DNA of 64,000 nt. Origin: a virus. The notes under the pieces are model-generated. The model was not told the DNA's origin. It ran no database searches and saw nothing but the letters and a program-made list of their open reading frames with translations. Below, in pieces: positions 16,632-35,603 of this stretch. The position numbers and the translations under genes are program-made. The stretch spans positions 64,001 through 128,000 of the IMG/VR virus record IMGVR_UViG_3300030108_004965. One strand, given 5' to 3'. The first letter of the stretch is position 1; the number at the start of each line of letters is the position of its first letter.

Positions 16632-16829
16632 CTAGTGTAGAAGGCCGCAGGACAGGGGCTTTAATCGTTTACTCTCAGTCCAGAAAGGTTTTATTTTATG
16701 TAAGAATGAAACATAAACATCAAGACCGTAATCATAAAAGGGTTCTTCTGGTACAGTCCTGAGAACCAAGACCATTCTATGGCCGTCCAGCATAAGCAAG
16801 TCACCTGCTGTTATGTCATTCCAGTTCAT
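16632..16829 (-). CDS. KOW/SH3-like mini-protein (divergent GDL family)
   Basis: ITAGDLLMLDG...VLVLR...WTESKRLKPL. Confidence 0.6.
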   Translation of the reverse strand: MNWNDITAGDLLMLDGHRMVLVLRTVPEEPFYDYGLDVYVSFLHKIKPFWTESKRLKPLSCGLLH

Positions 16830-17010
16830 CTAACACCTCGTAGTATATAAGGAATGACGACCAGTTTGTTGTGTGGACATTATCATAACTACCGAACATT
16901 CTAACACGTAAGTGTTCTACTGTGATATCATTCGTTTCATTCTTTCCTACAACTTCAGCATGTCCATAGTTTCCTTTACTATCTCTCACCAATAACTTTT
17001 TATTTTTCAT
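16816..17010 (-). CDS. hypothetical protein (64 aa)
   Basis: Start MKNKKLL after GGAGG; ATGA overlap with upstream gene. Confidence 0.65.
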   Translation of the reverse strand: MKNKKLLVRDSKGNYGHAEVVGKNETNDITVEHLRVRMFGSYDNVHTTNWSSFLIYYEVLDELE

Positions 17011-17186
17011 GTGTCCTCCGATGTTTTCACTTTGATTAACCATTTATTTGAGTGGTTGCTTGTTACGCCATTTGCCCATTGTACAGCACTTGCGCCCGAA
17101 TGAGATACAGAACCCTCAACAACTCTTATCACGATACCTAGACAGTCTTTGCTTCCGCTGTATCGCACTAAATCTCCTACCTTCAT
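17007..17186 (-). CDS. KOW/SH3-like mini-protein (GDLV family, 59 aa)
   Basis: Manual ORF MKVGDLVRYSGSKDCLGIVIRV...VQWANG. Confidence 0.75.
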   Translation of the reverse strand: MKVGDLVRYSGSKDCLGIVIRVVEGSVSHSGASAVQWANGVTSNHSNKWLIKVKTSEDT

Positions 17187-17371
17187 AATGCCTCCAAATA
17201 ATCTTTGTGTACTCGCCTTGTCTCACCATCGCTCCATGTTACATACCATCCAAGATCCCATTCTCTAACCAGAACACCGACCTGCTCTCGATAGTCAACA
17301 TTGTCCATCTGCTCGTATTTCCTTCCAACGCACCATACCATCGTCCATTTAACTAAATCTCCTTTTTTCAT
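17183..17371 (-). CDS. KOW/SH3-like mini-protein (GDLV family)
   Basis: MKKGDLVKW...VGVLV...VTWSDG...YLEAL. Confidence 0.75.
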   Translation of the reverse strand: MKKGDLVKWTMVWCVGRKYEQMDNVDYREQVGVLVREWDLGWYVTWSDGETRRVHKDYLEAL

Positions 17372-17378
17372 TTTGTCC

Positions 17379-17552
17379 TCACGGGTTTGAGCATGCTATC
17401 AGTTCCATATCTTCATAGGAGCAAAGAACCGTTGTGTTGTCGAACAACTGGACAACAGCATACATTTCGCTTTCTGTGTCCTCCCAGTGGAGATCAATGA
17501 TGATCCCCATCTGGTCGATTATCTTGTCCTTTACCAAGTCTCCAATCTTCAT
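17379..17552 (-). CDS. KOW/SH3-like mini-protein (GDLV family, 57 aa)
   Basis: Manual ORF MKIGDLVKDKIIDQMGIIIDL...DMELIACSNP. Confidence 0.7.
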   Translation of the reverse strand: MKIGDLVKDKIIDQMGIIIDLHWEDTESEMYAVVQLFDNTTVLCSYEDMELIACSNP

Positions 17553-17713
17553 TCTATCTTCTCCAGTTCATCGCTTGCCCACACACACGGCACAGGATAG
17601 GCACAGCCAGTTAACAATGAGCGCACAACGTAGAGCGCAGGTCTAATCTCGATGACTACCGCCAGTTCACCGAACTCTTTATCAAGCACCAAGTCTCCAA
17701 CATTAAACATCAT
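17549..17713 (-). CDS. KOW/SH3-like mini-protein (GDLV family, 54 aa)
   Basis: Manual ORF MMFNVGDLVLDKEFGELAVVIEI...DELEKIE. Confidence 0.7.
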   Translation of the reverse strand: MMFNVGDLVLDKEFGELAVVIEIRPALYVVRSLLTGCAYPVPCVWASDELEKIE

Positions 17714-17937
17714 CACTTCCAAGTAGGCTGAAGAGTTTCAGTGCAGAAGGTCAGGTCTTTGTGAGTAATCCACTTGTCGATACCATCGAACAGTTCGAGA
17801 TCCCAAGTTCGCAACTTGACTTCTTTGCCTTTGGTGTCGGTAGCATCGACATAACTGTACCCTTGCGATATAACTATGAAGAGTTCTCCGGTGCGTTCGT
17901 GGCGAACCAAGTCGCCTGATTTAAGTCGTAATCTCAT
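17713..17937 (-). CDS. KOW/SH3-like mini-protein (GDLV family)
   Basis: LKSGDLVRHERTGELFIVIS. Confidence 0.7.
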   Translation of the reverse strand: MRLRLKSGDLVRHERTGELFIVISQGYSYVDATDTKGKEVKLRTWDLELFDGIDKWITHKDLTFCTETLQPTWK

Positions 17938-18116
17938 TTTGCCTCCAAAGCGTAGATTATTTCGTCGATTGCTTCATCAAGTTCGAGAAGGTCATGTGCC
18001 TCGTCTTGATTGGTTGTTGTTGATGTTCGATGGATTATCCATCGCTGGATTTGTACCAGTCTTTCGTAGTCAGGATTTTCAGTGTTGTTAAGGTATTGCC
18101 AAATCTTGTCAATCAT
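17934..18116 (-). CDS. hypothetical protein (60 aa)
   Basis: Start MIDKIWQY after AAGGA RBS, downstream of promoter. Confidence 0.65.
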   Translation of the reverse strand: MIDKIWQYLNNTENPDYERLVQIQRWIIHRTSTTTNQDEAHDLLELDEAIDEIIYALEAK

Positions 18117-18173
18117 CTTAGTTCCTTTTGTTGGGGTTATACTATATTGTATCACGTTGAGGGGAAAAGTCAA

Positions 18174-18188
18174 GGACAGAAAATGTCC
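18174..18188. promoter_or_regulatory. palindromic operator GGACA-W5-TGTCC
   Basis: GGACAGAAAATGTCC abutting TTGACT-N16-TACAAT. Confidence 0.75.
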
Positions 18189-18190
18189 GT

Positions 18191-18406
18191 TTATGCGATT
18201 TTTGTTATGCCTCGGAGTAGACCGAGTTTTGTAAAGACCTTTTCTTTTCCCTTGCCATAAACAGGGGATTTAATGACCTCAGTTGTGATGTAAGGCGCAC
18301 CATAACGGCTTGTATCGCAAGAAGTGCCCGTTACAATGAGAACCTCATTGCCTACGTTACATTCGTTAAGGAGAATGTCTCCTATTTTGATCTCGGTGAT
18401 GTTCAC
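18191..18406 (-). CDS. KOW/SH3-like mini-protein (divergent)
   Basis: IKIGDILLNEC...VLIVTG. Confidence 0.65.
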   Translation of the reverse strand: MNITEIKIGDILLNECNVGNEVLIVTGTSCDTSRYGAPYITTEVIKSPVYGKGKEKVFTKLGLLRGITKIA

Positions 18407-18465
18407 AGTGAACTCCTTTTGTTTGGGTTATATAAGTAATGTATCACGTTTTGAGAGTTTGTCGA

Positions 18466-18480
18466 GGACATAAAATGTCC
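18466..18480. promoter_or_regulatory. palindromic operator GGACA-W5-TGTCC
   Basis: GGACATAAAATGTCC abutting TCGACA / TGaTACATT promoter. Confidence 0.75.
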
Positions 18481-18482
18481 GT

Positions 18483-18761
18483 TTATGCAATCAGCCCAGC
18501 ATGTCGAGCCGCTTCGGGAAGCATAATACTTGATGGCTTGACTTCACGCTTGATAAGTCCAACGTGTTGAGAAGTTGTCATCGAGATGAAGTCACCGCCT
18601 GTCGCTGTGAAGTCATAGACAACGATACCGCTTGTTGTCCACTCGGCAATCTTGAGTTTGTAAGAATAAAGAGCAGTACCATCGGTAAAAAGGTTAAGGC
18701 CGAGAGCGTCGCGACCGTTGAGGAAAGAGTTGATTACTTGTTCGTTTGTTGGGATTGGCAT
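18483..18761 (-). CDS. hypothetical protein, paralog of 20207..20512
   Basis: TNEQVINSF...TDGTALYSYKLKIAE...VYDFTA...SMTTSQHVGLIK. Confidence 0.75.
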   Translation of the reverse strand: MPIPTNEQVINSFLNGRDALGLNLFTDGTALYSYKLKIAEWTTSGIVVYDFTATGGDFISMTTSQHVGLIKREVKPSSIMLPEAARHAGLIA

Positions 18762-18819
18762 TGTTGCCTCCATTGTTTGGGTTACATATATAATGTATCA
18801 CGTTTTAAGGTTTTGTCGA

Positions 18820-18834
18820 GGACATTTTATGTCC
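18820..18834. promoter_or_regulatory. palindromic operator GGACA-W5-TGTCC
   Basis: GGACATTTTATGTCC abutting TCGACA / TGaTACATT promoter. Confidence 0.75.
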
Positions 18835-18855
18835 GTTTTTGTTTAGTCTCGAACA

Positions 18856-19074
18856 TCAGGGAGTTACAGGGAACACTTCATGTGCATGAAGCCAATAGGC
18901 CGAACCAAGCGATTGAAAGTGAACCTTGACCAGAAGCGTTGCTTGGTTCTTGTAACCCTCGACAGCAACGACTATTCCGATAGAACAGGTTCGCCATTGT
19001 CGATAGACGTTCTCATGCACATGGATACGAAGTGTCTCGCTATCCACGGTCACAAGATCGCCCACCTCGAACAC
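18856..19074 (-). CDS. KOW/SH3-like mini-protein (GDLV family)
   Basis: MFEVGDLVTV...IGIVVAV...VKVHF...YWLHAHEV. Confidence 0.75.
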   Translation of the reverse strand: MFEVGDLVTVDSETLRIHVHENVYRQWRTCSIGIVVAVEGYKNQATLLVKVHFQSLGSAYWLHAHEVFPVTP

Positions 19075-19662
19075 CTATGAAACCAACTTTAAGGCGCATT
19101 GACCACGGACAACAGCGGCTACACCGTCCTTCTCAACCATTCTCATACCAGCCTTGCGGAAGTCCTCGATAAGTTGGGAATGTTCGGCAACATCATCACC
19201 AAAGCCATCACCAGCGATTTCATTGATATACTCTTGTATCCCCACAAGATCGAATACATAGATACTAACGTGTGGATTAGAAGTTGGATACTTCGTATAG
19301 GTGAAGTCAGGGAACTGACTACCATGTGCGCTATCCGCTTGATACACGATAAATCGGTTAAACTGTATCATTTCACGGGAAATGCGGTGCGCTTTGCTTG
19401 TATGGATCGAACCGCTTCTAACGTCTTTGGTAACGTATCTATAAGCATATTGGCGAAGCAAATCACCAGTAATCCCCTGAGCGATACGCTCAACAACCAC
19501 ACTGTCATGTTCCTCCATCAGTGCAGTCCAATAGATATAACCGCTGTCATCGCTTTCAAGTTTCAAGCCGTGAAGAGAATAGCCAAGAGCAGACATGAAG
19601 ATTGCTCTAAGAGCGTCGAGAGTTTGTAGTTGTGTATGACATTCAAAAGTAGGATTTAACAT
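19075..19662 (-). CDS. hypothetical protein (195 aa)
   Basis: Start MLNPTF after GGAG RBS. Confidence 0.7.
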   Translation of the reverse strand: MLNPTFECHTQLQTLDALRAIFMSALGYSLHGLKLESDDSGYIYWTALMEEHDSVVVERIAQGITGDLLRQYAYRYVTKDVRSGSIHTSKAHRISREMIQFNRFIVYQADSAHGSQFPDFTYTKYPTSNPHVSIYVFDLVGIQEYINEIAGDGFGDDVAEHSQLIEDFRKAGMRMVEKDGVAAVVRGQCALKLVS

Positions 19663-19741
19663 AAGAACTCCGAAGGAGAAGAGGTTATTGTAAATAGGGC
19701 TTAGAACCATTCCTTGCCCTCTTGTCTATATTGTATCTCGT

Positions 19742-20050
19742 TTAGAACAAACTGTCAAGTAAATCGGCTAAGTTTTTTGGATCTTTTCGGACATTTTTTG
19801 TCCGTTTCTTAAATCCTCCGTTGCGTCCTTGCTTGTAAAGTTCGTTGGCACGGGCTTCATCAATAAATTCTATTTCTTCTTTGAGATTGAAATGTTTTGT
19901 ACAAAAGAACCATTTTTTACCATGACCCATAGACTGAAAAGTGACCATCCACAAGTCATCATTCGGGTTCTTTCGGGGCTTTATCCAAAGAGCATAGCCA
20001 ACCCCATACACTTGATGTTCACAGTATTTATATTTATCATCATTCGACAT
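19742..20050 (-). CDS. hypothetical protein (102 aa)
   Basis: ORF with GAGG RBS. Confidence 0.7.
   Translation of the reverse strand: MSNDDKYKYCEHQVYGVGYALWIKPRKNPNDDLWMVTFQSMGHGKKWFFCTKHFNLKEEIEFIDEARANELYKQGRNGGFKKRTKNVRKDPKNLADLLDSLF
19789..19803. promoter_or_regulatory. palindromic operator GGACA-W5-TGTCC (inside ORF)
   Basis: CGGACATTTTTTGTCCG ~30 bp upstream of TTGACA at 19754-19759. Confidence 0.7.
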
Positions 20051-20065
20051 AATCGTAATCCTCAG

Positions 20066-20173
20066 TTAAAATGTGCAAGATGTTATGGTAGTGTGCATTG
20101 TAGTGAAAAATAACAGGAGTGTCGTAGTCATCGAAGAAATGAACATGCCAATAGTTATCAACTCTCTTGGCAT
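20066..20173 (-). CDS. small hydrophobic peptide (35 aa)
   Basis: Manual ORF MPRELITIGMFISSMTTTLLLFFTTMHTTITSCTF. Confidence 0.4.
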   Translation of the reverse strand: MPRELITIGMFISSMTTTLLLFFTTMHTTITSCTF

Positions 20174-20206
20174 GTCCGTATCCTCGATCAAAGTGACGAA
20201 CCAAAA

Positions 20207-20512
20207 TCATCGTCTGTTCTGCGGCAGAAGGCCGGAAGCCACCGCAGTCTCGACTAATACGACGTTTCGCCTTGGTACACGTTGCTTCACCATGCCAACA
20301 TGCTGTGATGTCGTTTGAGACTTGTAAGCGTTGCCACGGGCAGTGTAGTCGTATACTAGGGTAGTAGCCTTTCCATAATCATCTGGAATATGTTCGGCAA
20401 TCCGTAGGTTGTAAGAGAAGAGAGATTGACCATCTGTGGTCAATGCACCCCCATTTGCTGGTCGTTGGTTCATAAAAGCATTTACTACTTGTTCGTTAGT
20501 GTGTCTAGCCAT
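20207..20512 (-). CDS. hypothetical protein, paralog of 18483..18761
   Basis: TNEQVVNAF...TDGQSLFSYNLRIAE...VYDYTA...SQTTSQHVGMVK. Confidence 0.75.
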   Translation of the reverse strand: MARHTNEQVVNAFMNQRPANGGALTTDGQSLFSYNLRIAEHIPDDYGKATTLVYDYTARGNAYKSQTTSQHVGMVKQRVPRRNVVLVETAVASGLLPQNRR

Positions 20513-20531
20513 TGTTACCTCCAATGGGTTT

Positions 20532-20575
20532 TGGGTTGTATATAATACCTATCGGGTTGGATAGGATTTGTCAAG
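20532..20575 (-). promoter_or_regulatory. class-B early promoter (TTGACA-N17-AACCCGATAGGT type)
   Basis: TTGACAaatcctatccAACCCGATAGGTATtatatacaacccaa. Confidence 0.7.
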
Positions 20576-20598
20576 AAAAAAGTTGAAAATAGTTCCAA

Positions 20599-20997
20599 TC
20601 ACCCCAGTTCTTCGCAAGCCAGATCAGCCTTTAATCTTCTGACCAGTGCGCCAGTCTTGCCCATGTCGGGGTGTGAGGTGATCAGATCGTAGGTAGGCAT
20701 GAGCCAGATTGGTTTGTGTTTTAGTTTATTAACGAACAGCAGGGCATTTTTGTAACTTGGAAATACCCCAACTTGCGCTCCAGAAAGCAGGTGAGTTACA
20801 ACATGCTTTTTGCTGTATCGTGTCCGTTCTTTTTGCTGTTTCTCTTTCCATTCTTTCACGCACCGATGAATGATAAAAGGATAAACATGTTCGGCTGGCA
20901 TTGTACAGGTCAGTTGATCAAAGTTGTATGTCATAATGTTAATTGTTTGTCTCGTAAGGCTCATAAACGCTCCTATAAGGCATTTGTGAAGGTTCAT
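20599..20997 (-). CDS. hypothetical protein (start uncertain)
   Basis: ORF track. Confidence 0.6.
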   Translation of the reverse strand: MNLHKCLIGAFMSLTRQTINIMTYNFDQLTCTMPAEHVYPFIIHRCVKEWKEKQQKERTRYSKKHVVTHLLSGAQVGVFPSYKNALLFVNKLKHKPIWLMPTYDLITSHPDMGKTGALVRRLKADLACEELG

Positions 20998-21024
20998 AGG
21001 GGTACAGGTAGGGTAGGAGGAGAG

Positions 21025-21042
21025 AAGCCCCTAAAGGGGCTT
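21025..21042 (-). terminator. hairpin overlapping the stop codon of the VWA gene
   Basis: AAGCCCC-TAAA-GGGGCTT, followed on the transcript by a C-rich tract rather than a U-tract. Confidence 0.45.
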
Positions 21043-22294
21043 ATTTGTCCACCGCAATGACACGCTCATTCGTTGTGAAGTATGGACGAGAAGCACACTC
21101 CGGAGTAGTCATCCACATACGCTGACACTTCGATGGTACGGGCTTAGGTGCTTCCATATCAGTTAGAATGATATGACCATCAAAGTTGCGCTCATTGACC
21201 CAACGGGTCGGAGCGTCGAAGCAAGTACCACCGCAAGAGACACGCTCGAAGGTTCGACGTTTCCCCTTCTTCCAGACATAGACTTCATCTTCAGCAACGA
21301 CTGTATCGAAGGGAACAACGGTAAACTCGGCATACTTGGCAAGTCCGTTAAGTTCTGCGAAGAAGATGGAAAGCATTTGATCTGAAACAGATCCCGACTG
21401 GTCGATAGAGATAGCAATCTTGGCTGTACGGTTGACCTTCTTTCCAGCATGAATGTAAGGGAAACGCTTGTTAATCCTACGGACTGTCGAGCGACGATTA
21501 GCCCGTTGGGAAGTCTTGACAAAGTATCGAAGCACAGACCGCCAGTTCACCTTCGGTGTAACCATATCTTGGATCTTCTTTCTCATACCTTGGGATACAG
21601 TACCCCAGCCACGACCGCCAGCATTGACTTCATCGGTTGCCTTGCGGATAACGTCTTTCAAGCGTTCCTCGGCCATAGCCTTAGTCTCTTGATCGACTTC
21701 TCCCCAACCGCTGTGGTCATCGAGGCTATCAGGCAAGCCGCCACCGCCTTTACCTTGCCCATCACCATCGGAAGGATCGCCAGAGCCAGAACCTTCGCCA
21801 TCTTGACCTTCGCCTTGACCTTCGCCTTCGCCATCTTTAGGCTTGAACTGCTCGTCATTCTGAAGTTTGGAGAAGTACCACTCAGCCGACATTTCCAGAG
21901 GATAGTCTTGAAACGGCTCTTGTGTCGGGATACAGCCACCTTCGGGAAGTTTACCAACCAAGAAGGAGTTGATCGCAAGGTCTGTGGCTACATTCCACAT
22001 TTTGGACATACCCTCCGGTGGTAGGCGACCAGTAACATGTTCTAAGATAAGATGATAAAACTCATGCATAAGAACCCCAAGCCGCTGTTCTTCTGGAAGA
22101 TCAGCAAAGAAGTTAGGATTGTACATCATGACGAACTGAGCAGTCTCTTTGTCAATCATTACACCAGCGGTAGGAATAGCGGTGCTTTCCACTTTGTGAA
22201 TACGACGAGACAAGCCAGCGAAGAAGGGTTCGGATTGTAGCAACTTGAAAGTGTGTTTGTTCAAGTCAAACTTGGGAGTTGTTTTGTCAGTCAT
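21041..22294 (-). CDS. DUF2201-type metallopeptidase + VWA-like domain protein
   Basis: GVLMHEFYH (HExxH); G/E/D linker; IAISIDQSGSV (MIDAS); GGTCF; IILTDME. Confidence 0.85.
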   Translation of the reverse strand: MTDKTTPKFDLNKHTFKLLQSEPFFAGLSRRIHKVESTAIPTAGVMIDKETAQFVMMYNPNFFADLPEEQRLGVLMHEFYHLILEHVTGRLPPEGMSKMWNVATDLAINSFLVGKLPEGGCIPTQEPFQDYPLEMSAEWYFSKLQNDEQFKPKDGEGEGQGEGQDGEGSGSGDPSDGDGQGKGGGGLPDSLDDHSGWGEVDQETKAMAEERLKDVIRKATDEVNAGGRGWGTVSQGMRKKIQDMVTPKVNWRSVLRYFVKTSQRANRRSTVRRINKRFPYIHAGKKVNRTAKIAISIDQSGSVSDQMLSIFFAELNGLAKYAEFTVVPFDTVVAEDEVYVWKKGKRRTFERVSCGGTCFDAPTRWVNERNFDGHIILTDMEAPKPVPSKCQRMWMTTPECASRPYFTTNERVIAVDK

Positions 22295-22310
22295 AAGACC
22301 TCCAAGGTTT

Positions 22311-22354
22311 TGGGTTATGTAATATACTTATCGGGTTAGACAGGAGTTGTCAAG
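22311..22354 (-). promoter_or_regulatory. class-B early promoter
   Basis: TTGACAactcctgtctAACCCGATAAGTATattacataaccca. Confidence 0.7.
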
Positions 22355-22393
22355 AAAAAGGAGTAAAAAACCTTGACAACCCCCGTCACTTCG

Positions 22394-23458
22394 TTAGTCC
22401 TTCTTAGCACCAAGGATCTCGATCATGTAATCACGAACAGAAGAACCGTTGGAAAGTTGCACAGAATGGACACCAGAAGCGTTGTGACGCTGTTCAGCAC
22501 CTGAAGCAATAACAGTCCAGAAAGACATGCCAATCTCCGATGGTAGCGTGATCATGTACTCAGCAACATTTTTCAGTTGATCAGCAGACAACTTATCATC
22601 GAAGCACTTAGATTGCTTGAACTTCTCGATAAGAGCGTTGTGGTCGTTGATCTTGAAGTCTTTGGTCAAATCAAGTTTGCCTTCATCCAAGATGTTCTCG
22701 ACAGTTACAATCTTCTTGTAGTTTGCAACGAAGTCATTGAAAGCGACCGCACCCTCGAAGCCAATGAAAGAAGAGGCAAGGTGATAAAGCACAGGGCTTT
22801 GCTTAATCTCCCCATTCATCGAGAGTAGAGCGTCTGAAAGACGAACCCAAGAGCGACGAGAAGGATAAACCTTGTTAGGCTCGTATTCATCGGTATGTTC
22901 AAGGTGTTGATGGTTTTGGTTGATGAAGTCCCAGATTTGAGAAACTACGTTTCCATCTGCCCAATCGAGCCAATCTTCAACCGTAGGTTGTACATCAAAG
23001 ACAGTATAGCGATCCAGTTCCGCTGGATCCATTTCACCAACTTGATACTGTGCCCCGTGTTCTCCACCGTTTACACAAGCAAAGATAAGGGTGTCGGGGT
23101 GTAGGGTATACCCTGCGATCTTCCGACTGTCGCATAACTCGAAGATACCTTGGCGAACTTCCATAGTTGCACGGTCTACTTCATCGAGGAATAGGATAGC
23201 AGGTTCATTGCAAGCGTTATGCAACCATTCTGGTGCAAGCCACGTAGTAACGTTGCCCTCTACCTTTGGTAGACCAAGCAAGTCACCTTCGGTCATCTGT
23301 GAAGCACGACGCTCGATGACAGGCAGACCACGGGCTTCTGCAATCTGATAGACGATAGCGGATTTACCGATACCGTGACGACCACGAATGAGAACAGGAA
23401 ACTTAGCGTCAAGGATGAAAGGAAGAACTGAGTTGAGAGTTTTGAAGTCAATAGCCAT
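22394..23458 (-). CDS. MoxR-like AAA+ ATPase
   Basis: Walker A GRHGIGKS, Walker B ILFLDEVDR, ELDRY; adjacent to VWA partner. Confidence 0.9.
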   Translation of the reverse strand: MAIDFKTLNSVLPFILDAKFPVLIRGRHGIGKSAIVYQIAEARGLPVIERRASQMTEGDLLGLPKVEGNVTTWLAPEWLHNACNEPAILFLDEVDRATMEVRQGIFELCDSRKIAGYTLHPDTLIFACVNGGEHGAQYQVGEMDPAELDRYTVFDVQPTVEDWLDWADGNVVSQIWDFINQNHQHLEHTDEYEPNKVYPSRRSWVRLSDALLSMNGEIKQSPVLYHLASSFIGFEGAVAFNDFVANYKKIVTVENILDEGKLDLTKDFKINDHNALIEKFKQSKCFDDKLSADQLKNVAEYMITLPSEIGMSFWTVIASGAEQRHNASGVHSVQLSNGSSVRDYMIEILGAKKD

Positions 23459-29063: not shown

Positions 29064-29067
29064 GTTT

Positions 29068-29220
29068 TCATAATAGTTCGAGATTACAGCCGTTGTAGCC
29101 TTGTTTGTATTTTTCATCGAACCAGTAGACCACCCACCTATCGACACAACCTACTTGCCATAGAATAATACCTATGCCTTCGCCACAGCCGTCTGTTACC
29201 AAATCACCTACTCCGAACAT
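29068..29220 (-). CDS. KOW/SH3-like mini-protein (GDLV family, 50 aa)
   Basis: Manual ORF MFGVGDLVTDGCGEGIGIIL...VYWF...NLELL*. Confidence 0.7.
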   Translation of the reverse strand: MFGVGDLVTDGCGEGIGIILWQVGCVDRWVVYWFDEKYKQGYNGCNLELL

Positions 29221-29221
29221 G

Positions 29222-29494: not shown

Positions 29495-29717
29495 GTTGTC
29501 CTCCTTTGACAATCTTGAATGTTTCAGTTGAACCATAAAGGTCATGATCCCACATAGCGTCATCGTCATCTTCACTTAACCACTTAATGTAGATAAGATG
29601 GGCAAAGCCACCATTTTTGTGGTGCGCCTCGGTATGAGTTACCCACCCTATGTCATTAGCCTCTGGATGATTATTTTCCCAATGTTTATACAGTATCATG
29701 TCTCCAACTTCTATCAT
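29484..29717 (-). CDS. KOW/SH3-like mini-protein (GDLV family)
   Basis: MIEVGDMILY...IGWVTH...IKWL. Confidence 0.7.
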   Translation of the reverse strand: MIEVGDMILYKHWENNHPEANDIGWVTHTEAHHKNGGFAHLIYIKWLSEDDDDAMWDHDLYGSTETFKIVKGGQHER

Positions 29718-29774
29718 AATGTCCTCCAGTGTTGGGGTATAGTAGTAATGTATCATGTCCTCGAAATAAATCAA

Positions 29775-29789
29775 GGACATTTTTTGTCC
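29775..29789. promoter_or_regulatory. palindromic operator GGACA-W5-TGTCC
   Basis: GGACATTTTTTGTCC abutting TTGATT / TGaTACATT promoter. Confidence 0.75.
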
Positions 29790-29791
29790 GA

Positions 29792-30772
29792 TTATGGAAC
29801 ATGGTATCCATAAGATTTCAATCGTGCCTTAAGTTTCCCAGCGTTGCGACCTCTACGGGATGGATGGAACTTTGCTATCAACGGGGCTAGTTTACAGTTA
29901 ACTTCCCAAAGATTTTTGTTTTTTGCAATCCATTCCCAACACTCGGTATATCCATTGTTAAACCATTCTTCAGTAGGAATGTTCTCACTTGGTGCAAGGA
30001 TGTTATCTATTCTAGCACCCCAACTAGAGCCACGGTTGAACAACTCAGCAATCTTACCTTCTTTGCCCTGCTGGGTGTCGTTAATAACAAGAGAATGAAA
30101 CGGGTTTGTTAGTGTATGAGTTTGACCATCTATCAATACATCAATGCTTAACTCTGATTTGTAATCCCAATCTGATAGCGTCAAACCCATGTTGACCTGA
30201 TCCCAAGAAATAGCGGTGACAATACCAATCCCTGACCAGTTCTCTAGCCATAGGCCATTTTGTCGAAAGTGACTAGCAGACAAAGAAAGCAATGCACCTT
30301 CAGCAAAGCCCATACCCTTCACAAAACGCTCATAGAATAACTTGCGATAGTTCTGAGAGGCTCGGCCAAGATCGTCGATGAAGTTGTGCATAACATCGCA
30401 GTTCCTACGGTTATGCCCAGTCTCTCCGCAGAAGCCACAAGAAGTCTTGCGCTTTCGAGGCTTAACGCCCAGCCGTTCTAGTCGATCTTTCTTTTCCTTT
30501 CTGGCTTGTATCCGACGTTGTTGTCGGTCGTAGGCAGACTGCATGTTTCTGAAGATACGGTCATGATAAATCAACCTACCATCTTGATCTCTCTTACCGT
30601 AGGTGTTCCCATACCAAGTGGTGAACAGGCTAATGTCGGGTTCTTTGCCCTGCTTCTTCAGTTCCACCATCTTGGCTGGTACAGGGCAGGTCATCCACAT
30701 GTGACCTTCATTGCCACAGGTAGGGCAGTGTGTTGCTCGTTTATATCGATTTCTTTCTTCGTATATTTTCAT
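29792..30772 (-). CDS. double CCHC zinc-knuckle protein (paralog B)
   Basis: CPTCGNEGHMWMTC and CGFCGETGHNRRNC; shares NYRKLFYERFV..MG..EGALL and ILAPSE..P.EEW with paralog A. Confidence 0.8.
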   Translation of the reverse strand: MKIYEERNRYKRATHCPTCGNEGHMWMTCPVPAKMVELKKQGKEPDISLFTTWYGNTYGKRDQDGRLIYHDRIFRNMQSAYDRQQRRIQARKEKKDRLERLGVKPRKRKTSCGFCGETGHNRRNCDVMHNFIDDLGRASQNYRKLFYERFVKGMGFAEGALLSLSASHFRQNGLWLENWSGIGIVTAISWDQVNMGLTLSDWDYKSELSIDVLIDGQTHTLTNPFHSLVINDTQQGKEGKIAELFNRGSSWGARIDNILAPSENIPTEEWFNNGYTECWEWIAKNKNLWEVNCKLAPLIAKFHPSRRGRNAGKLKARLKSYGYHVP

Positions 30773-30790
30773 TTCGACCTCCAAGTCGTT

Positions 30791-30833
30791 TGGGTTATAT
30801 AGAACACTTATCGGGTTCAGTTGGTTTTGTCAA
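30791..30833 (-). promoter_or_regulatory. class-B early promoter
   Basis: TTGACAaaaccaactgAACCCGATAAGTGTtctatataaccca. Confidence 0.7.
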
Positions 30834-31024
30834 ACATTTTCTTGATTTTTCTTTATAGCCTCGGTGATCTCGATAAAGTCATCTTTTTTTATTTTTGCAA
30901 GAGCCAGACTAACAATGGCTGGGTCTGTATCCATTCCTTCTATTATATCTTGCAGTTCCCATATGCCCGATTGCTGTAAGATGTGCAATGAGTTAACGGA
31001 GATTTCTAAATCAACTAGGTTCAT
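30830..31024 (-). CDS. hypothetical protein (64 aa)
   Basis: Start MNLVDLE after GGAGG. Confidence 0.65.
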   Translation of the reverse strand: MNLVDLEISVNSLHILQQSGIWELQDIIEGMDTDPAIVSLALAKIKKDDFIEITEAIKKNQENV

Positions 31025-31259
31025 TTTGTACCTCCTGTATGACTTCGATTTCATTGGACGAACAGCCGATATAGTCTCCGTTCTCCAATGCTACGTGCCA
31101 ACGACCCCAGTGTTCTTGTCCGTGTTCATCGACACCTTCATCGGCCATGACTATCCCGATCCTGTCGGAATAAACATAGCCCCTTTTATCTTTCCATTCT
31201 TTTACAATGACCAGTTCCCCGATCTGAATGGCTTTTTTGCTTCTGTTTATTTTTAACAT
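31011..31259 (-). CDS. KOW/SH3-like mini-protein (GDLV family)
   Basis: IQIGELVIV...IGIVMA...VALENG...EIEVI. Confidence 0.7.
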   Translation of the reverse strand: MLKINRSKKAIQIGELVIVKEWKDKRGYVYSDRIGIVMADEGVDEHGQEHWGRWHVALENGDYIGCSSNEIEVIQEVQNEPS

Positions 31260-31420
31260 AGTATCTCCAAATCTTCTTTGTCTACCCAATCATCTACCAA
31301 ATCTTCTTCACAGACCCAATAGCAAAGTATCATTCCATCCGCTAAATCTTCATGATCCACGATGATACCTATCCCCCAGTAGGGATAACGGGGGTTGTGG
31401 ACTAAATCTCCTATTTTCAT
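31253..31420 (-). CDS. KOW/SH3-like mini-protein (GDLV family)
   Basis: MKIGDLVHNP...IGIIVD...CYW...DLEILC*. Confidence 0.8.
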   Translation of the reverse strand: MKIGDLVHNPRYPYWGIGIIVDHEDLADGMILCYWVCEEDLVDDWVDKEDLEILC

Positions 31421-31617
31421 ATTACCTCCAAGTAGTAGCCATATTCGTGCGTAGGAGATGCGTTGTGTGCCCACAGCACCGCATACTCCTCATGTTCGTC
31501 CTCATACCCCCCTGCACCTCGGTAGGAGACTATCATCCCGATCCAATCGAACTCATTGCCAGATGGATCAGCGAAGCCCTTCTGGATCTTTACAAGGTCG
31601 CCTATCTCAAAGTTCAT
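31417..31617 (-). CDS. KOW/SH3-like mini-protein (GDLV family)
   Basis: FEIGDLVKI...IGMIVS...VLW...YLEVI*. Confidence 0.8.
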   Translation of the reverse strand: MNFEIGDLVKIQKGFADPSGNEFDWIGMIVSYRGAGGYEDEHEEYAVLWAHNASPTHEYGYYLEVI

Positions 31618-31894
31618 CCTTCACCTCCTTAACGTCCAGAAATGAGCCTATATAACCCACAGGACACCTATACATTATGACCCTCCAGCCCATGAACTGG
31701 GTAGGTAGACGGGTATGCCACGGGGATACCTCGGTATCCTCTGTCTCTGCGTATACGTCTAGTGTAGTACCGCAGTCATTCGATGCCTTGCGGATGTAGA
31801 AGGCACTATCCGTACACTCTATCACTAAGGATTTTATCTCTTCTTTTGCCTCGTCAAACGGGGCTTTCTCTTTATTCCAATGTATGTTAGCCAT
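31607..31894 (-). CDS. hypothetical protein (95 aa)
   Basis: RBS supplied by the MEVING junction of the upstream gene. Confidence 0.7.
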   Translation of the reverse strand: MANIHWNKEKAPFDEAKEEIKSLVIECTDSAFYIRKASNDCGTTLDVYAETEDTEVSPWHTRLPTQFMGWRVIMYRCPVGYIGSFLDVKEVKDEL

Positions 31895-32036
31895 TTATCA
31901 CCTCCATTTCGCTTTCTATGTGATAGCCTTGTGTGCCATCAGTCCACTGAACATAAAACTCTCCGTCGTATACCACTTCTGTGATAATGCCGATGTCTCC
32001 ATCTTCGTTGTATCTTACTAAATCACCTACTTCCAT
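31887..32036 (-). CDS. KOW/SH3-like mini-protein (GDLV family, 49 aa)
   Basis: Manual ORF MEVGDLVRYNEDGDIGIITEV...VQWTDG...EMEVING*. Confidence 0.8.
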   Translation of the reverse strand: MEVGDLVRYNEDGDIGIITEVVYDGEFYVQWTDGTQGYHIESEMEVING

Positions 32037-32202
32037 TTATCACCTCCAAGTTTTCTTTTCGTTCATAACTGCTTTTTTGATTGCTCCACTGGATCAGGCA
32101 CTGTTCCACTATCCCGAATGGGGTATATCCAAGCCGTTTCCTAACGACAATACCAAACAACCACTTTGTGTGCTTGGGGCTTACTAAATCACCTACTTCC
32201 AT
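32023..32202 (-). CDS. KOW/SH3-like mini-protein (GDLV family, 59 aa)
   Basis: Manual ORF MEVGDLVSPKH...FGIVV...IQWSN...NLEVINGSR*. Confidence 0.8.
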   Translation of the reverse strand: MEVGDLVSPKHTKWLFGIVVRKRLGYTPFGIVEQCLIQWSNQKSSYERKENLEVINGSR

Positions 32203-32350
32203 TTATCACCTCCATATCGCTTGGGTTCATAAATCCCAAATCTCCACAAGACCATTGTACCCACCAGCCACCTGTGTTGTGCTTGACAATAATACCTGTC
32301 CTGTTGCACCCATACTTTGACTTCATCTTTACTAAATCACCTACTTTCAT
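32189..32350 (-). CDS. KOW/SH3-like mini-protein (GDLV family)
   Basis: MKVGDLVKM...TGIIVK...VQWSCG...DMEVINGSR*. Confidence 0.8.
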   Translation of the reverse strand: MKVGDLVKMKSKYGCNRTGIIVKHNTGGWWVQWSCGDLGFMNPSDMEVINGSR

Positions 32351-32526
32351 ATTACCTCCAACTGAGTTGGGAAATACATTCCGTACTTTCCTGTGTTGAG
32401 CCACAAAACTCTCGTTCTTTGAAACTGGCCAGTTGGTGACATTGATCCTTCTATGACCATGCCAAACCAGTTTGATTTGTCGTGAGAGGTTTTGTGCCTA
32501 AACTTTACCAAATCACCTACTTTCAT
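32347..32526 (-). CDS. KOW/SH3-like mini-protein (GDLV family, 59 aa)
   Basis: Manual ORF MKVGDLVKF...FGMVIE...VLWLN...QLEVI*. Confidence 0.8.
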   Translation of the reverse strand: MKVGDLVKFRHKTSHDKSNWFGMVIEGSMSPTGQFQRTRVLWLNTGKYGMYFPTQLEVI

Positions 32527-32689
32527 TTATCACCTCCACATGATAACTGCCGCCAGTTGTAATGCGGCCATCACCCCACTGAATACGGTAAATCCAATGA
32601 ACAGGGTTTACTTGTTTCTTCTTGCTTATTACAATCCCAACACCTTGTTTCGGGTTGGTTGTTAGTTTTACCAAATCACCTACTTCCAT
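32513..32689 (-). CDS. KOW/SH3-like mini-protein (GDLV family, 58 aa)
   Basis: Manual ORF MEVGDLVKL...VGIVIS...IQWGDG...HVEVINESR*. Confidence 0.8.
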   Translation of the reverse strand: MEVGDLVKLTTNPKQGVGIVISKKKQVNPVHWIYRIQWGDGRITTGGSYHVEVINESR

Positions 32690-32828
32690 TTATCACCTCC
32701 AGTGATGTTAAAGGGCATAGGTAGATTTCATTATTGAACATAACACAGCAGTCACCATTTCTTCTTATCTCTACAAGAACACCGATGGTTGGGTCATTCG
32801 CAAACAAAACTAAATCACCTATATTCAT
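32676..32828 (-). CDS. KOW/SH3-like mini-protein (GDLV family)
   Basis: MNIGDLVLF...IGVLVE...SLEVINGSR*. Confidence 0.8.
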   Translation of the reverse strand: MNIGDLVLFANDPTIGVLVEIRRNGDCCVMFNNEIYLCPLTSLEVINGSR

Positions 32829-32829
32829 A

Positions 32830-33201
32830 TCAATACCCCACTTGTATTTCACGCTTGACATGGATCTCACTTTCCCACCAGTCGCCACGATACTCTATGT
32901 CTTCGAGTTCTTCGCCAATGCGGAGGAAGCGAAACTTTTCTCTTTTTTCAACATCTTCCTCCATAGCGTCCATAAACTTCTCAAACATTTGAATGTCTTC
33001 AAACTCATTGAAGGTGGTATACCATTTTATACTATTGCACGTAAAGAGCCAATGCCCCTCGCATTGATAGTCTTTATCGAACTCAAAGTCAGACATATCT
33101 CCAAAGATTTGAGCCATGAGTTCTTCTGTTTTGAGAAAGGTGAGGAAGTCACCTTGTAAGTCTTTGTGTATTGCTATTGCAACGTCTGATCTGTATCCCA
33201 T
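32830..33201 (-). CDS. hypothetical protein (123 aa)
   Basis: MGYRSDVAIAI...FRFLRIGEELED; GGAGG RBS. Confidence 0.75.
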   Translation of the reverse strand: MGYRSDVAIAIHKDLQGDFLTFLKTEELMAQIFGDMSDFEFDKDYQCEGHWLFTCNSIKWYTTFNEFEDIQMFEKFMDAMEEDVEKREKFRFLRIGEELEDIEYRGDWWESEIHVKREIQVGY

Positions 33202-33260
33202 TGGACACCTCCTGTTTGTTGGTTATACTATAAGTGTATCACGACCAGCCAAAAAAGCAA

Positions 33261-33275
33261 GGTCATTTTTTGTCC
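33261..33275. promoter_or_regulatory. palindromic operator (GGTCA-W5-TGTCC)
   Basis: GGTCATTTTTTGTCC abutting TTGCTT / TGaTACACT promoter. Confidence 0.7.
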
Positions 33276-33448
33276 GTTTTTATTATTCTTAATTCGACCT
33301 CGGCAATCTCGGAGATAACTCCATCGTTCCACCAAACTCTATACCATCTGTTCCCTGTGTACATGTGCGAAGAGATTACAATGCCGATCTTCTTTGTGTT
33401 GCTCCAAGTCCAGATAAACTCGACAAGTTCACCGTTCTGGATCATCAT
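33263..33448 (-). CDS. KOW/SH3-like mini-protein (GDLV family)
   Basis: IQNGELVEF...IGIVIS...VWWNDG...ELRII. Confidence 0.75.
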   Translation of the reverse strand: MMIQNGELVEFIWTWSNTKKIGIVISSHMYTGNRWYRVWWNDGVISEIAEVELRIIKTDKK

Positions 33449-33626
33449 TTAAGGCCATTAGTTCACAGTCTATAAGGTCAATCCCTTCAGTTCCATCTGC
33501 CCACAAAACATCGTAAGTTGTCTGATTGAATGTATTTAACTCTGGGCTTGTTATATCCGAAACGATCCCGATCATTCCGTGGTCTGCGTCGTATTGTATC
33601 CACATAACTAAATCACCTATTTTCAT
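33429..33626 (-). CDS. KOW/SH3-like mini-protein (GDLV family)
   Basis: MKIGDLVMW...IGIVSD...VLWADG. Confidence 0.8.
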   Translation of the reverse strand: MKIGDLVMWIQYDADHGMIGIVSDITSPELNTFNQTTYDVLWADGTEGIDLIDCELMALNDDPER

Positions 33627-33783
33627 TTATCACCTCCAATCCACTGGTGTACATTCCAGACCTGCTTCCGCACTGCCAGAACACCACGGCATATTCCTGA
33701 GCATGCACATGAAAACACAATATGTTCTCTACTATTCCGTACTGTTCGTGTTCTTTGTGTTTTACTAAATCACCTACTTTCAT
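33613..33783 (-). CDS. KOW/SH3-like mini-protein (GDLV family, 56 aa)
   Basis: Manual ORF MKVGDLVKH...YGIVEN...VFW...GLEVINENR*. Confidence 0.8.
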   Translation of the reverse strand: MKVGDLVKHKEHEQYGIVENILCFHVHAQEYAVVFWQCGSRSGMYTSGLEVINENR

Positions 33784-33934
33784 TTATCACCTCCAACCAT
33801 TGGATCTCGATCCAGTAGGTTTTACCACTAGACCAATAAACATTCGCATATCCTTTTGTAACCTCGACAATCATTCCGGTGTCTCCGGCAGAAGGATAAT
33901 CTTCACCTACTATAACTAAATCACCCCTCTCCAT
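33770..33934 (-). CDS. KOW/SH3-like mini-protein (GDLV family, 54 aa)
   Basis: Manual ORF MERGDLVIV...TGMIVE...VYWSSG...WLEVINESR*. Confidence 0.8.
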   Translation of the reverse strand: MERGDLVIVGEDYPSAGDTGMIVEVTKGYANVYWSSGKTYWIEIQWLEVINESR

Positions 33935-34121
33935 CGAACACCTCGTCGATGCTATCTATCTTCTTGATGAAATGCCCAGCAATGTCAGGGTGCTTTACTT
34001 TGAGCCACATGCCCACAATGTCGCACTCCCACATGTCTACAACCTCATAGTACACGGGTTCATAGTTTTGATACACTCCGTACCTTTTTGCTGTTACCTT
34101 ATCGCCTATTTTTATTCGCAT
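33921..34121 (-). CDS. KOW/SH3-like mini-protein (divergent)
   Basis: MRIKIGDKV... Confidence 0.7.
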   Translation of the reverse strand: MRIKIGDKVTAKRYGVYQNYEPVYYEVVDMWECDIVGMWLKVKHPDIAGHFIKKIDSIDEVFDGEG

Positions 34122-34297
34122 AATACCTCCATGCCCCAACTGTCATACGTCCAGCCTCTACCAGATCGCCCGTTTGAGAAAAGAACAACAAAGTAAGATT
34201 TACCCTCCATCCTATATTCTTCCGTCGCAATACCCAACGCACCAACCAATTGTTTGTTGTCGCTTTTTGTGACCATCACTAAACTACCTACTTTCAT
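34112..34297 (-). CDS. KOW/SH3-like mini-protein (GDLV family)
   Basis: MKVGSLVMV...LGIATE...VLFSNG...GMEVLCE*. Confidence 0.8.
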   Translation of the reverse strand: MKVGSLVMVTKSDNKQLVGALGIATEEYRMEGKSYFVVLFSNGRSGRGWTYDSWGMEVLCE

Positions 34298-34445
34298 TTA
34301 TCACCTCCATTCTTCTGGCTGGTGTCCAAGAATGATCCCCATCGTACCAAAGCACCTTGATGGTGAACTCATTCTGGCCAATCTCTGTTACTATTCCCAT
34401 TTGTTCACTATGGAATACATGCTTTACTAAATCACCTACTTTCAT
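34284..34445 (-). CDS. KOW/SH3-like mini-protein (GDLV family, 53 aa)
   Basis: Manual ORF MKVGDLVKH...MGIVTE...VLWYDG...RMEVINESR*. Confidence 0.8.
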   Translation of the reverse strand: MKVGDLVKHVFHSEQMGIVTEIGQNEFTIKVLWYDGDHSWTPARRMEVINESR

Positions 34446-34624
34446 GATGCCTCCTGTTTGTCGTCTAAGGGTCTGTAAAAGACCCTCCAGTTAATGTCGC
34501 CAATCTGGCAATACCTGTCTTTGTCTAGGTTGATACAGCCGATATATCCACCAACCAATGATGGTTCTGTGACTACGTATCTGTCGCCTAGATCCTTGTG
34601 TATGTAAATGTCGCCTACTTTCAT
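34442..34624 (-). CDS. KOW/SH3-like mini-protein (divergent)
   Basis: MKVGDIYIHKD... Confidence 0.7.
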   Translation of the reverse strand: MKVGDIYIHKDLGDRYVVTEPSLVGGYIGCINLDKDRYCQIGDINWRVFYRPLDDKQEAS

Positions 34625-34782
34625 ATTACCTCCAACAGATCCTTGTGGATACGGAATGTTAGGTTCGGTTTCCTCGATCTGTTCTTCTTATGAATAAAAA
34701 CAGCACAGTGTGTCGAAGATGCACTGACAACGATACCTATTTCTTTTGTGCTTTTGGTCATTACCAAATCTCCTGATTTCAT
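34621..34782 (-). CDS. KOW/SH3-like mini-protein (GDLV family, 53 aa)
   Basis: Manual ORF MKSGDLVMTKSTKEIGIVVS...LLEVI*. Confidence 0.75.
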   Translation of the reverse strand: MKSGDLVMTKSTKEIGIVVSASSTHCAVFIHKKNRSRKPNLTFRIHKDLLEVI

Positions 34783-35120
34783 GATGCTTTCCCCTTGTGA
34801 TTAGAGTTGCCGATGTTCTCTCCAACCTTGGAGAAAGCCACGTTATTAAGACCGCCACGACGTTGGTTATTCCAGCCTCTGTTGGCTTCCCAAGTCTTGC
34901 CGTAAATCTCTGCGTCATCCTCGCTGTCGAAGCGTAGGATCTGCATAGCCGCCATCTTACCATCACCGGTAGTGAAGGCACGAACTCTGCTCTTGATTTC
35001 AAGACCAAGTTCCTCGACGCAATCGGGACACTCGTTGATCTTGCCACCTGCCCGTCGCTTTTTAGGGCATTGCAAACTAAAGTCATCACCGCAGTGAATA
35101 CATTCTCTTATGTGTCTCAT
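34779..35120 (-). CDS. zinc-ribbon protein
   Basis: ECIHCG...ECPDC; GGAGG RBS. Confidence 0.7.
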   Translation of the reverse strand: MRHIRECIHCGDDFSLQCPKKRRAGGKINECPDCVEELGLEIKSRVRAFTTGDGKMAAMQILRFDSEDDAEIYGKTWEANRGWNNQRRGGLNNVAFSKVGENIGNSNHKGKAS

Positions 35121-35176
35121 TTGACACCTCCGTTTTGTTTGGGTTATACTATATCGTATCACGTTGTTAAAATAAA

Positions 35177-35401
35177 TCAAGGACAAATTATGTCCGAAAA
35201 TGCTTTGTAGAGTGCTGGTGTCCAGTCGCTCGGCTTTATCTCATAGTGAAACATTGATTTCCAAGTCTCACTACAAGTGAAGTCTCCATCGTTCCAAGCC
35301 ACTTGGAACATCTCACGATCATCATCATAATCGACAACAATCCCAATGAAAACGTCATCTGTGTCGCTTCTTACGAAGTCTCCGATCTTGAAGTTATTCA
35401 T
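35177..35401 (-). CDS. KOW/SH3-like mini-protein (GDLV family)
   Basis: FKIGDFVR...IGIVVD...VAWNDG. Confidence 0.75.
   Translation of the reverse strand: MNNFKIGDFVRSDTDDVFIGIVVDYDDDREMFQVAWNDGDFTCSETWKSMFHYEIKPSDWTPALYKAFSDIICP
35181..35195. promoter_or_regulatory. palindromic operator GGACA-W5-TGTCC
   Basis: GGACAAATTATGTCC abutting TTGATT / TGaTACGAT promoter. Confidence 0.75.
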
Positions 35402-35603
35402 AGATACCCCCAAGATGCCTAATTTCATCCGTGTAGTGTGGCTGGATGCGTTCATCATAAACTCCATTCAGCCACTCAACAAGGACTTGTCCATAGCCTT
35501 CTTCTGTTATCACCATGCCTATCGGCAATGTAACATCATTTTCCGATGGATCTGGTGTCCAATGTGCGTCATAAACTAAATCACCAATCTTGAACTCACT
35601 CAT
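35394..35603 (-). CDS. KOW/SH3-like mini-protein (GDLV family)
   Basis: FKIGDLVY...IGMVIT...VEWLNG. Confidence 0.75.
   Translation of the reverse strand: MSEFKIGDLVYDAHWTPDPSENDVTLPIGMVITEEGYGQVLVEWLNGVYDERIQPHYTDEIRHLGGIYE

Follow-up and report, generated by a model that had tools for sequence, protein, structure and literature searches.

The IMG/VR record IMGVR_UViG_3300030108_004965 is 191,696 bp long and is rated complete by CheckV. Its source is an uncultured marine phage of ~192 kb, just below the jumbo size limit; its marine origin is concluded from the fact that Tara and other ocean metagenomes are the source of the homologous proteins. The stretch of 64,000 nucleotides (nt) analysed here, referred to as the window, corresponds to positions 64001–128000 of the record. 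Between positions 16632 and 35603 of the window, a motif scan combined with alignment identified 43 open reading frames (ORFs) of 49–82 amino acids (aa), all on the minus strand, which occupy 42% of the interval. They share the skeleton M-[KEQ]-[VI]-G-D-L-V ... G-[IV]-[IV] ... V-x-W-x-[DN]-G ... L-E-V-[IL], and we refer to them as the GDLV family. An initial annotation, made from the letters of the DNA, had arrived at the same count of 43 and at a motif that matches the conserved columns of the alignment.

A profile hidden Markov model (HMM; profile A1) built from 38 family members matched the whole genome 39 times at E≤0.01, with a best value of 2e-18. All matches are on the minus strand and in the window, 35 of them at 17019–35594. 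The pattern is far beyond chance, because neither the other strand nor the 128 kb of the genome outside the window contains a match. Thirty-six of the 43 interval ORFs are HMM-significant, and about seven (16632, 17549, 18191, 26297, 27589, 33921 and 34442) are sub-threshold and were assigned by motif only. In total, 49 family ORFs amount to 9.5 kb, or 4.9% of the genome. Counting copies per genome with an HMM, which the initial annotation had proposed, gave 39 matches here and 11, 30, 37, 19 and 6 in five related phage records, recovered with the MoxR ATPase gene of the module as an anchor. The locus, with many homologous copies matching a common profile, has the properties of a lineage-specific expansion.

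The conserved columns of the alignment are G5 (47/47), D6, L7, V8, G19, I20, V21, V37, W39, D/N41, G42, L53, E54, V55 and I56. The connecting segments vary in sequence and length, as previously noticed: 7–24 residues between β1 and β2, 7–18 between β2 and β3, and 8–17 between β4 and β5, whereas the β3–β4 turn has a constant length of 2 residues. The residues common to the members are the fold-determining ones only, and the surfaces range from very acidic to basic. Thirty of the 49 members are acidic, seven neutral and twelve basic, with an isoelectric point (pI) above 8; the pI spans 4.1–10.1, and many of the acidic members carry a net charge of −9 to −14 in ~55 aa.

The family genes of the interval stand in runs and as single copies, all on the minus strand. 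The first six mini-genes (16632, 17007, 17183, 17379, 17549 and 17713; 16632–17937) include four HMM-significant members (17007, 17183, 17379, 17713), two motif-only ones (16632, 17549) and, among them, a non-family ORF of 64 aa (16816–17010). A lone divergent, motif-only member with the N-terminal motif IKIGDILL (18191–18406; its ortholog in the relative G002 is 80% identical) and a lone 72-aa member with MFEVGDLV (18856–19074; HMM E=1.3e-4; orthologs 81% and 69% identical) follow. A pair of members overlapping by 10 nt (23912–24088 and 24079–24261; E 3e-17 and 8e-18) adjoins a gene for a 235-aa fusion protein (24261–24968), the C-terminus of which matches the profile (E=2.3e-5). An AlphaFold2 (AF2) model of the fusion protein contains an all-helical N-terminal domain of residues 5–147 with a predicted local distance difference test score (pLDDT) of ~90, without an informative match in the PDB, followed by lower-confidence barrel strands in residues 157–225. 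Three members (25735, 25908 and 26066; 25735–26227), of which 25908–26069 is the protein modelled below, precede eight members in a row (26297–27759) with overlaps of 4 or 10 nt, the latter yielding tails ending in EV(I/T)CK-stop. A lone 50-aa member closes its operon (29068–29220; it ends in LELL with a GAA codon), and a lone 77-aa member is at 29484–29717 (E=2e-12). The distal part of the interval contains three members (31011, 31253 and 31417; 31011–31617), six in a row (31887–32828) joined mostly by the 14-nt junction GGAGGTGATAAATG(G/A)AAGTAGGTGA with the tail EVIN(G/E)SR-stop, ten in a row (33263–34782; 33921 and 34442 are motif-only) and two at 35177–35398 and 35394–35603 (35177–35603). 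Outside the interval, the expectation of about seven further copies in the window was roughly right. Four clear copies on the minus strand were found at 1098–1325 and 1312–1533 (within 1098–1533; E 1e-13 and 2e-15; orthologs in the relative G003), 37025–37258 (E 4e-5) and 57019–57246 (E 1.7e-11), together with two weaker motif-only candidates at 36511–36828 and 39847–40083.

The AF2 model of the protein encoded at 25908–26069, calculated with the family alignment, has a pLDDT of 92.9 and strands at residues 6–9, 14–20, 30–35, 40–44 and 48–52. The model supports a predicted five-stranded SH3-like small barrel of the KOW/Tudor type, with SH3 topology. Foldseek and VIA-align matched it to the KOW domains of NusG and Spt5, the Tudor domains of UvrD/PcrA and PHF proteins, HspQ, prophage YorP and PsaE/NdhS/PetP, and more than 200 chains at Z≥5 belong to the SH3, Tudor or KOW class. 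In the VIA alignment with the NusG KOW domain 2xhc, 47 residues aligned with Z 7.7, a root-mean-square deviation (rmsd) of 1.4 Å and 34% identity; the identity to NusG KOW in structural alignments is 32–34%. The barrel matches are all at Z ~7–8, which is a tie across superfamilies, and therefore neither a specific subfamily nor a function in RNA polymerase (RNAP), S10 or Lon binding can be assigned. The family resembles the barrels of NusG, Spt5, UvrD/PcrA, the RNAP-interaction domain (RID) of Mfd/CarD, HspQ and B. subtilis YorP in its ~50-residue five-stranded fold and in its structural rmsd of 1.1–2 Å over 46–52 residues, with up to 34% identity to T. maritima NusG KOW. It also has the layout of the KOW motif, in which a G-D-x-V first strand leads through a loop with glycine into a second strand that is hydrophobic. 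In contrast to those barrels, which are domains of larger factors, the GDLV proteins are stand-alone, 50–80 aa long and without a Pfam model at threshold.

Sequence searches with the same proteins gave isolated or sporadic sub-threshold matches only in Pfam, NCBIfam and PHROG. One of 38 members matched KOW6_SPT5 (E=0.0029; 17.5 bits versus a cut-off of 27), and none of the 38 matched PF00467 at E≤0.1. CarD_TRCF_RID had no Pfam match among the 38 members scanned, and Mfd chains appeared in Foldseek at TMq values of 0.55–0.57 only. Membership of the KOW, CarD-RID or HspQ families is not supported. The earlier comparison to KOW/SH3/Tudor barrels thus stands for the predicted fold, on the strength of AF2, Foldseek and VIA, and not for KOW or CarD-RID sequence membership, for which the Pfam scores are below threshold. 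Many uncharacterised small phage ORFs in BFVD match the model, including T4-type gp30.5 and DUF2158 proteins, and the ESM Atlas returned unnamed viral clusters only. An exhaustive profile search at E≤1e-3 recovered 3,624 clusters at 50% identity, nearly all of 50–70 aa. Because there are 3,624 metagenome clusters and no Pfam entry, the family deserves definition. A few homologues contain 5–7 tandem barrel copies. The metagenomic proteins P0026 (L015), P0039, P0043 and P0142, which are distant homologues, are single polypeptides with 3–7 tandem barrels; in P0142, a signal peptide and an N-terminal domain judged by eye to be lysozyme-like precede five repeats. The layout of P0142 suggests a cell-wall-binding use of a related repeat.

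The arrangement of starts and stops shows co-oriented genes with a predicted translational coupling through overlaps of 4 nt (ATGA; 13 cases), 10 nt (5) or 14 nt (9). The 14-nt junction GGAGGTGATAAATG(A/G)AAGTAGGTGA encodes E-V-I-N-(E/G)-S-R-stop and, in the frame of the following gene, M-(K/E)-V-G-D, and the 10-nt junction encodes E-V-I-C-K-stop and M-Q-(V/I)-G. Since the overlap encodes both, the tails NESR and CK are by-products of the N-terminus of the next gene. The codons of the conserved Leu-Glu-Val (LEV; TTGGAGGT, typically TTG-GAG-GTn) hold the GGAGGT Shine-Dalgarno sequence of the following gene. At the motif positions, glutamate is encoded by GAG in 25 of 32 cases, compared to 61 of 165 elsewhere (Fisher p=2.4e-5), and the third base of the preceding leucine codon is G in 18 of 22 cases compared to 49 of 171 (p=2e-6). 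This codon usage proves, at the level of the nucleotide sequence, that the LEV codons are under dual constraint. The seven cases with GAA are mostly the last members of an operon or have a separate Shine-Dalgarno sequence after them, and the hydrophobic-E-hydrophobic pattern is kept even there; therefore, the residues are a feature of the protein and the codon choice is a feature of translation. The LEV codons double as a ribosome-binding site, which explains the hyper-conserved appearance of the gene ends in the DNA and provides an example of overlapping constraints. Near-identical junctions of 34 nt are present in 13 strict copies. Many of the listed ORFs start with MEVxM or MEAxM (for example 20524, 18773, 24968, 29001, 30784 and 35467). 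The leader there reads ATG-GAG-GTn-nnn-ATG, an in-frame ATG ahead of a GGAGGT Shine-Dalgarno sequence, and translation probably starts at the second ATG.

Two classes of conserved intergenic elements of 60–70 nt, always on the gene strand, are confined to positions 79.3–99.2 kb of the genome, and the sixteen elements split the module into ~16 short operons. Ten elements of class P (15292–35199, minus strand) are located at about 15292–15363, 18121–18192, 18413–18484, 18767–18838, 23526–23597, 27765–27836, 28996–29067, 29722–29793, 33208–33279 and 35128–35199. They consist of a GGACA-N5-TGTCC stem-loop abutting TTGAC-N16/17-TACA(A/T)T; the downstream part reads (TG)n-TACA(A/T)T, then the leader TATAACCCAAACAAA and then GGAG-ATG. 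An alignment of nine copies has an invariant CGG.CA...TG.CCT.G, a TTGAC-like hexamer, a spacer of 16–17 nt and (TG)nTACA(A/T)T. Matches of a generic sigma70 scan fall inside class P copies at 18173, 18465, 18819 and 27817. The six promoter-like elements of class Q (20529–30853, minus strand) are located at 20529–20594, 22308–22373, 23870–23935, 24971–25036, 26242–26307 and 30788–30853, and contain a T-run, an invariant TTGACAA, AACCCGATAAG and TAT(T/A)ATATAACCCAAAA. Class Q carries the same leader, TATAACCCAAA, as class P, at an equal distance. The relatives G002 and G003 have conserved copies of both classes, and G001 has those of class P. In the hyperplastic regions of T4-type phages, composite stem-loop/early-promoter elements (PeSLs) have been implicated in modular shuffling (PMC4122927; PMC2839356). 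Class P shares with them a stem-loop directly before a sigma70-like promoter and a concentration in a hyperplastic region with break-point association (10 of 10 copies in 79.3–99.2 kb). The perfect inverted repeat GGACA-N5-TGTCC of class P overlaps the −35 hexamer. We speculate that the repeat, besides being a weak terminator, could serve a dimeric repressor as the operator through which the module is shut off.

The backbone enzymes of the phage are 90–95% identical to those of G002 and G003, whereas orthologs of the GDLV family are 35–93% identical, and many members are without an ortholog there. Genome comparison shows that whole genes have apparently been gained, lost or relocated among the relatives, with breaks at gene junctions and promoter-like elements. 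Of 55 synteny-block ends against G002 and G003, 58% are no more than 25 nt away from a family start junction or a P or Q element, the two kinds of site being pooled in this test, versus 15% for random positions; none of 2000 simulations reached the observed enrichment. Examples are an indel of four genes at 32189–32828, the replacement of six genes for three at 33638–34611, and the single genes 23912, 24079 and 26297, which are placed elsewhere in relatives. An unrelated marine contig contains 18 copies in 7.8 kb, also with 14-nt overlaps. A search of INPHARED by 10-kb megablast and by tblastn with one member returned no matches, in a set that may not include near relatives.

Copies within the genome are at most 47% identical to each other, and the closest match of 40 of 42 members is in another genome. 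Because of these two observations the expansion is judged to be old, and a recent burst of duplication is ruled out. Going by sequence divergence, the expansion is common to a clade of marine phages. The ratio of nonsynonymous to synonymous substitution rates (dN/dS) of orthologs is 0.10–0.57 in 27 pairs, compared to 0.05–0.08 for the MoxR and VWA enzymes and 0.10–0.32 for other unannotated genes of the module; these values are approximate, since dS is near saturation in many pairs. The ratios show the predicted ORFs of the family to be real genes, each under apparent purifying selection. In ocean metagenomes, individual paralogs have a wide distribution and are stable. The locus offers a clean evolutionary picture of ancient paralogs that appear individually constrained and shuffled as whole cassettes.

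On balance, the interval is probably a hyperplastic accessory module, presumably expressed early, of distinct small binding proteins for host takeover or counter-defence. Each barrel copy would be a separate small binding module with its own host or phage macromolecule as target, a protein or, for some copies, a nucleic acid. The acidic majority may bind proteins or mimic DNA, and the basic minority possibly binds nucleic acid. Distinct partners for the paralogs are favoured because only the core residues are conserved, the pI ranges from 4.1 to 10.1 and many members are very acidic. The set may act as a repertoire against the host, kept and reshuffled by cassette recombination, not by ongoing hypermutation or positive selection. 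The initial annotation had proposed an early arsenal of this kind, and that part agrees with a promoter-dense module that seems to resemble an early or host-takeover region and with the diverse surfaces; the ongoing diversification attached to it was not supported. Its term "natural binder library" is partly supported, being reasonable as a loose name for a repertoire built on one scaffold and not in the sense of ongoing loop-focused diversification.

Several points weigh against the module being an early repertoire of binders. The identification of classes P and Q as promoters is consensus-based and derives from repeated conserved elements. A generic sigma70/terminator scan found 46 sites versus 38.7±5.4 in shuffled sequences, with no significant promoter enrichment, and class Q is without a good −10 hexamer at a spacing of 17 nt. 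Break points at gene boundaries would also be expected if alignments stop at a fast-evolving gene, and recombination at the junction repeat is for this reason not proven. The approximate dN/dS values add to these reservations. Finally, T4 can do without its analogues of these proteins in the laboratory, and no partner of theirs is known (PMC12152347).

A bolder version of the same reading is tentative, and we would not presume it. It holds that the ~45 barrels mostly have different host targets, such as defence proteins, RNAP or ribosome factors and nucleoid proteins, and that cassettes are swapped without an integrase while translational coupling is kept. The cassette system would consist of the 34-nt dual-coding junction, which combines a C-terminus, a Shine-Dalgarno sequence and an N-terminus, plus the PeSL-like elements. 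If the members do bind distinct host targets, they would provide a panel of minimal binders and probes of the vulnerabilities of abundant marine bacteria.

Alternatively, though this is unlikely, the barrels are RNA-directed regulators of the LSm/Hfq or KOW kind, which bind mRNAs, small RNAs or the transcription-translation machinery and tune RNA stability or termination. The same has been proposed for GoF of T4, of which the variant GoF(D25Y) stabilises an mRNA and suppresses rho alleles. The fold class includes the KOW, LSm and PWWP nucleic-acid binders, the family profile weakly matched the KOW domain of uL24c in a profile search of the PDB (E=0.011), and the twelve basic members would suit such a role. 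However, the strong negative charge of many of the 30 acidic members is unfavourable for general RNA binding, the model is without the N-terminal Sm helix, and all KOW and LSm Pfam models are below threshold.

Still less probable is an actively diversifying binder library, in which an arms race against host factors or defences would expose the loops to positive or hypermutational selection. The loops differ wholly in sequence and length between paralogs, and gene content turns over between related phages, as such a library would predict. The loop-focused diversification postulated in the initial annotation, in the sense of positive selection, is nevertheless not supported by the substitution data. 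When orthologs were pooled by predicted secondary structure, dN/dS was 0.217 in strands and 0.216 in loops; absolute dN is greater in loops (0.24 versus 0.17), and the constraint relative to dS is equal. No pair exceeds 0.57, and the ortholog dN/dS gives no indication of positive selection. The paralogs are deeply diverged, with their nearest relatives mostly in other genomes. The 90%-identity cluster of one paralog contains ~12 variable sites among the 15 members listed, mostly conservative. A search of the 191.7-kb genome with RVT_1 found no reverse transcriptase and, therefore, there is no diversity-generating retroelement (DGR); with few and conservative changes in the population cluster of that paralog, the set does not have the features of a DGR-type repertoire.

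It is comparably improbable that the barrels are adaptors of AAA+ proteases or chaperones, which redirect a host or phage AAA+ machine to different substrates, like HspQ with Lon or SPO1 Gp53 with ClpCP (PMC6873191). The top Foldseek match in the PDB is HspQ, the Lon specificity-enhancing factor (5ycq; template modelling (TM) score 0.82; E 7.6e-3), and the Joint Genome Institute (JGI) labels some homologues "HspQ". Genes of a MoxR-type AAA+ ATPase (AAA_5) and a DUF2201 metallopeptidase/VWA partner lie in the middle of the array (21041–23458, minus strand), each behind a class Q element, and GroEL is encoded nearby; the two genes are the most conserved of the module (dN/dS 0.05–0.08). However, the HspQ match is tied with many SH3-like barrels at Z ~7, and the YccV/HspQ models of Pfam and NCBIfam match none of 38 members at E≤0.1, so that the likeness is at the level of the fold only and the JGI label is not backed by models. 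The gene neighbourhood alone is weak evidence.

The least probable of the explanations weighed here is that the genes are largely selfish or neutral cassettes, small ORFs of little fitness value multiplied by a recombinogenic junction repeat and PeSL-like elements; the near-identical 34-nt junctions, the position of the break points and a copy number of 6 to 39 among relatives are compatible with it, but dN/dS is well below 1 in every testable ortholog pair, loops included, paralogs diverged down to ~30% identity are without pseudogene decay, and individual paralogs persist across the oceans. That the family consists of chance ORFs and not of genes is ruled out, since its members are confined to one strand, have Shine-Dalgarno sites and a dN/dS below 1, and are represented by orthologs in five other phage records.

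That a tiny domain can be multiplied many times over in a big phage is known already; the present locus is a large and well-resolved case of this in an unnamed family, in which the junction is clearly dual-coding and PeSL-like elements occur in a phage that is not of the T4 group. Among the unexplained genes of large phages, small SH3-like ORFs belong to the commonest. The ~45 copies place the locus among the largest expansions seen, comparable to the ~35 zinc ribbons of Bacillus phage G (Iyer et al. 2021), which were called "unprecedented" (PMC7824862). Phage G and arrays of more than 30 similar genes (PMC13282480) also have tens of copies of a tiny domain. Unlike in those, the domain here is SH3-like instead of a zinc ribbon, the copies have diverged deeply and are not highly similar, and the expansion is common to a clade of marine phages, with turnover. 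The small early proteins of T4 (PMC12152347) have a five-stranded barrel of the SH3/LSm type, a function that is not known, sequences unrecognisable by BLAST and no essential role in the laboratory. They differ in being three, each with an extra C-terminal domain, whereas ~45 mostly barrel-only proteins are encoded in tandem here, and the likeness is by fold. The PeSLs of T4-type phages (PMC2839356; PMC4122927) likewise combine a stem-loop with following sigma70-like −35 and −10 hexamers, many repeats, an accessory region and break points. In contrast, the phage described here is not T4-like, since it has a DnaE-type polymerase; the stem GGACA/TGTCC differs, break points also coincide with class Q and with the intragenic overlap junction, and the elements are known here from sequence. 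The host-takeover module of SPO1 likewise packs small genes of unknown families closely together in numerous short operons, whose promoters and ribosome-binding sites are strong, and its products bind individual host proteins such as RNAP, HU and ClpC (PMC6873191). Most of its 26 genes have no relation to one another, whereas one fold dominates here, and a takeover role of the GDLV module is suggested by analogy.

Other genes of the window include those of a DnaE-type Pol III alpha subunit, an N6/N4 methyltransferase-SprT fusion and a NUDIX protein, together with the MoxR and DUF2201 pair and the GroEL gene near the array. Within the module, two paralogous proteins of 299 and 330 aa (27836–28735 and 29792–30784, minus strand) each contain two CCHC zinc-knuckle-like motifs (CxxCxxxGHxxxxC). 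Neither Pfam nor PHROG matched them, and their orthologs in the relatives share 63–73% identity, with dN/dS of 0.14–0.25. A second small paralog family of ~92–105 aa (18483–18773 and 20207–20524, minus strand), each copy behind its own promoter-like element, has the signature ...TNEQV(I/V)N(S/A)F(L/M)N...TDG..L(Y/F)SY.L(K/R)IAE...TTSQHVG. The other unannotated genes of the module are without a Pfam match, and PHROG gave only a weak match of 20207–20524 to phrog_7247.

An Rfam scan of the window found nothing besides a transfer-messenger RNA (tmRNA) at 58675–59006 on the minus strand, which was identified by ARAGORN and Rfam (RF00023, 92.8 bits) and has the tag peptide ANNNLYFEEALAA; a weaker match of a permuted-tmRNA model overlaps it. 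The G+C content is 0.41–0.47 over the accessory module (~12–36 kb of the window) versus 0.34–0.39 in most of the remaining window. The higher value of the module could be due to a different origin, its amino-acid composition or the many GGAGG/GGTGA junctions.

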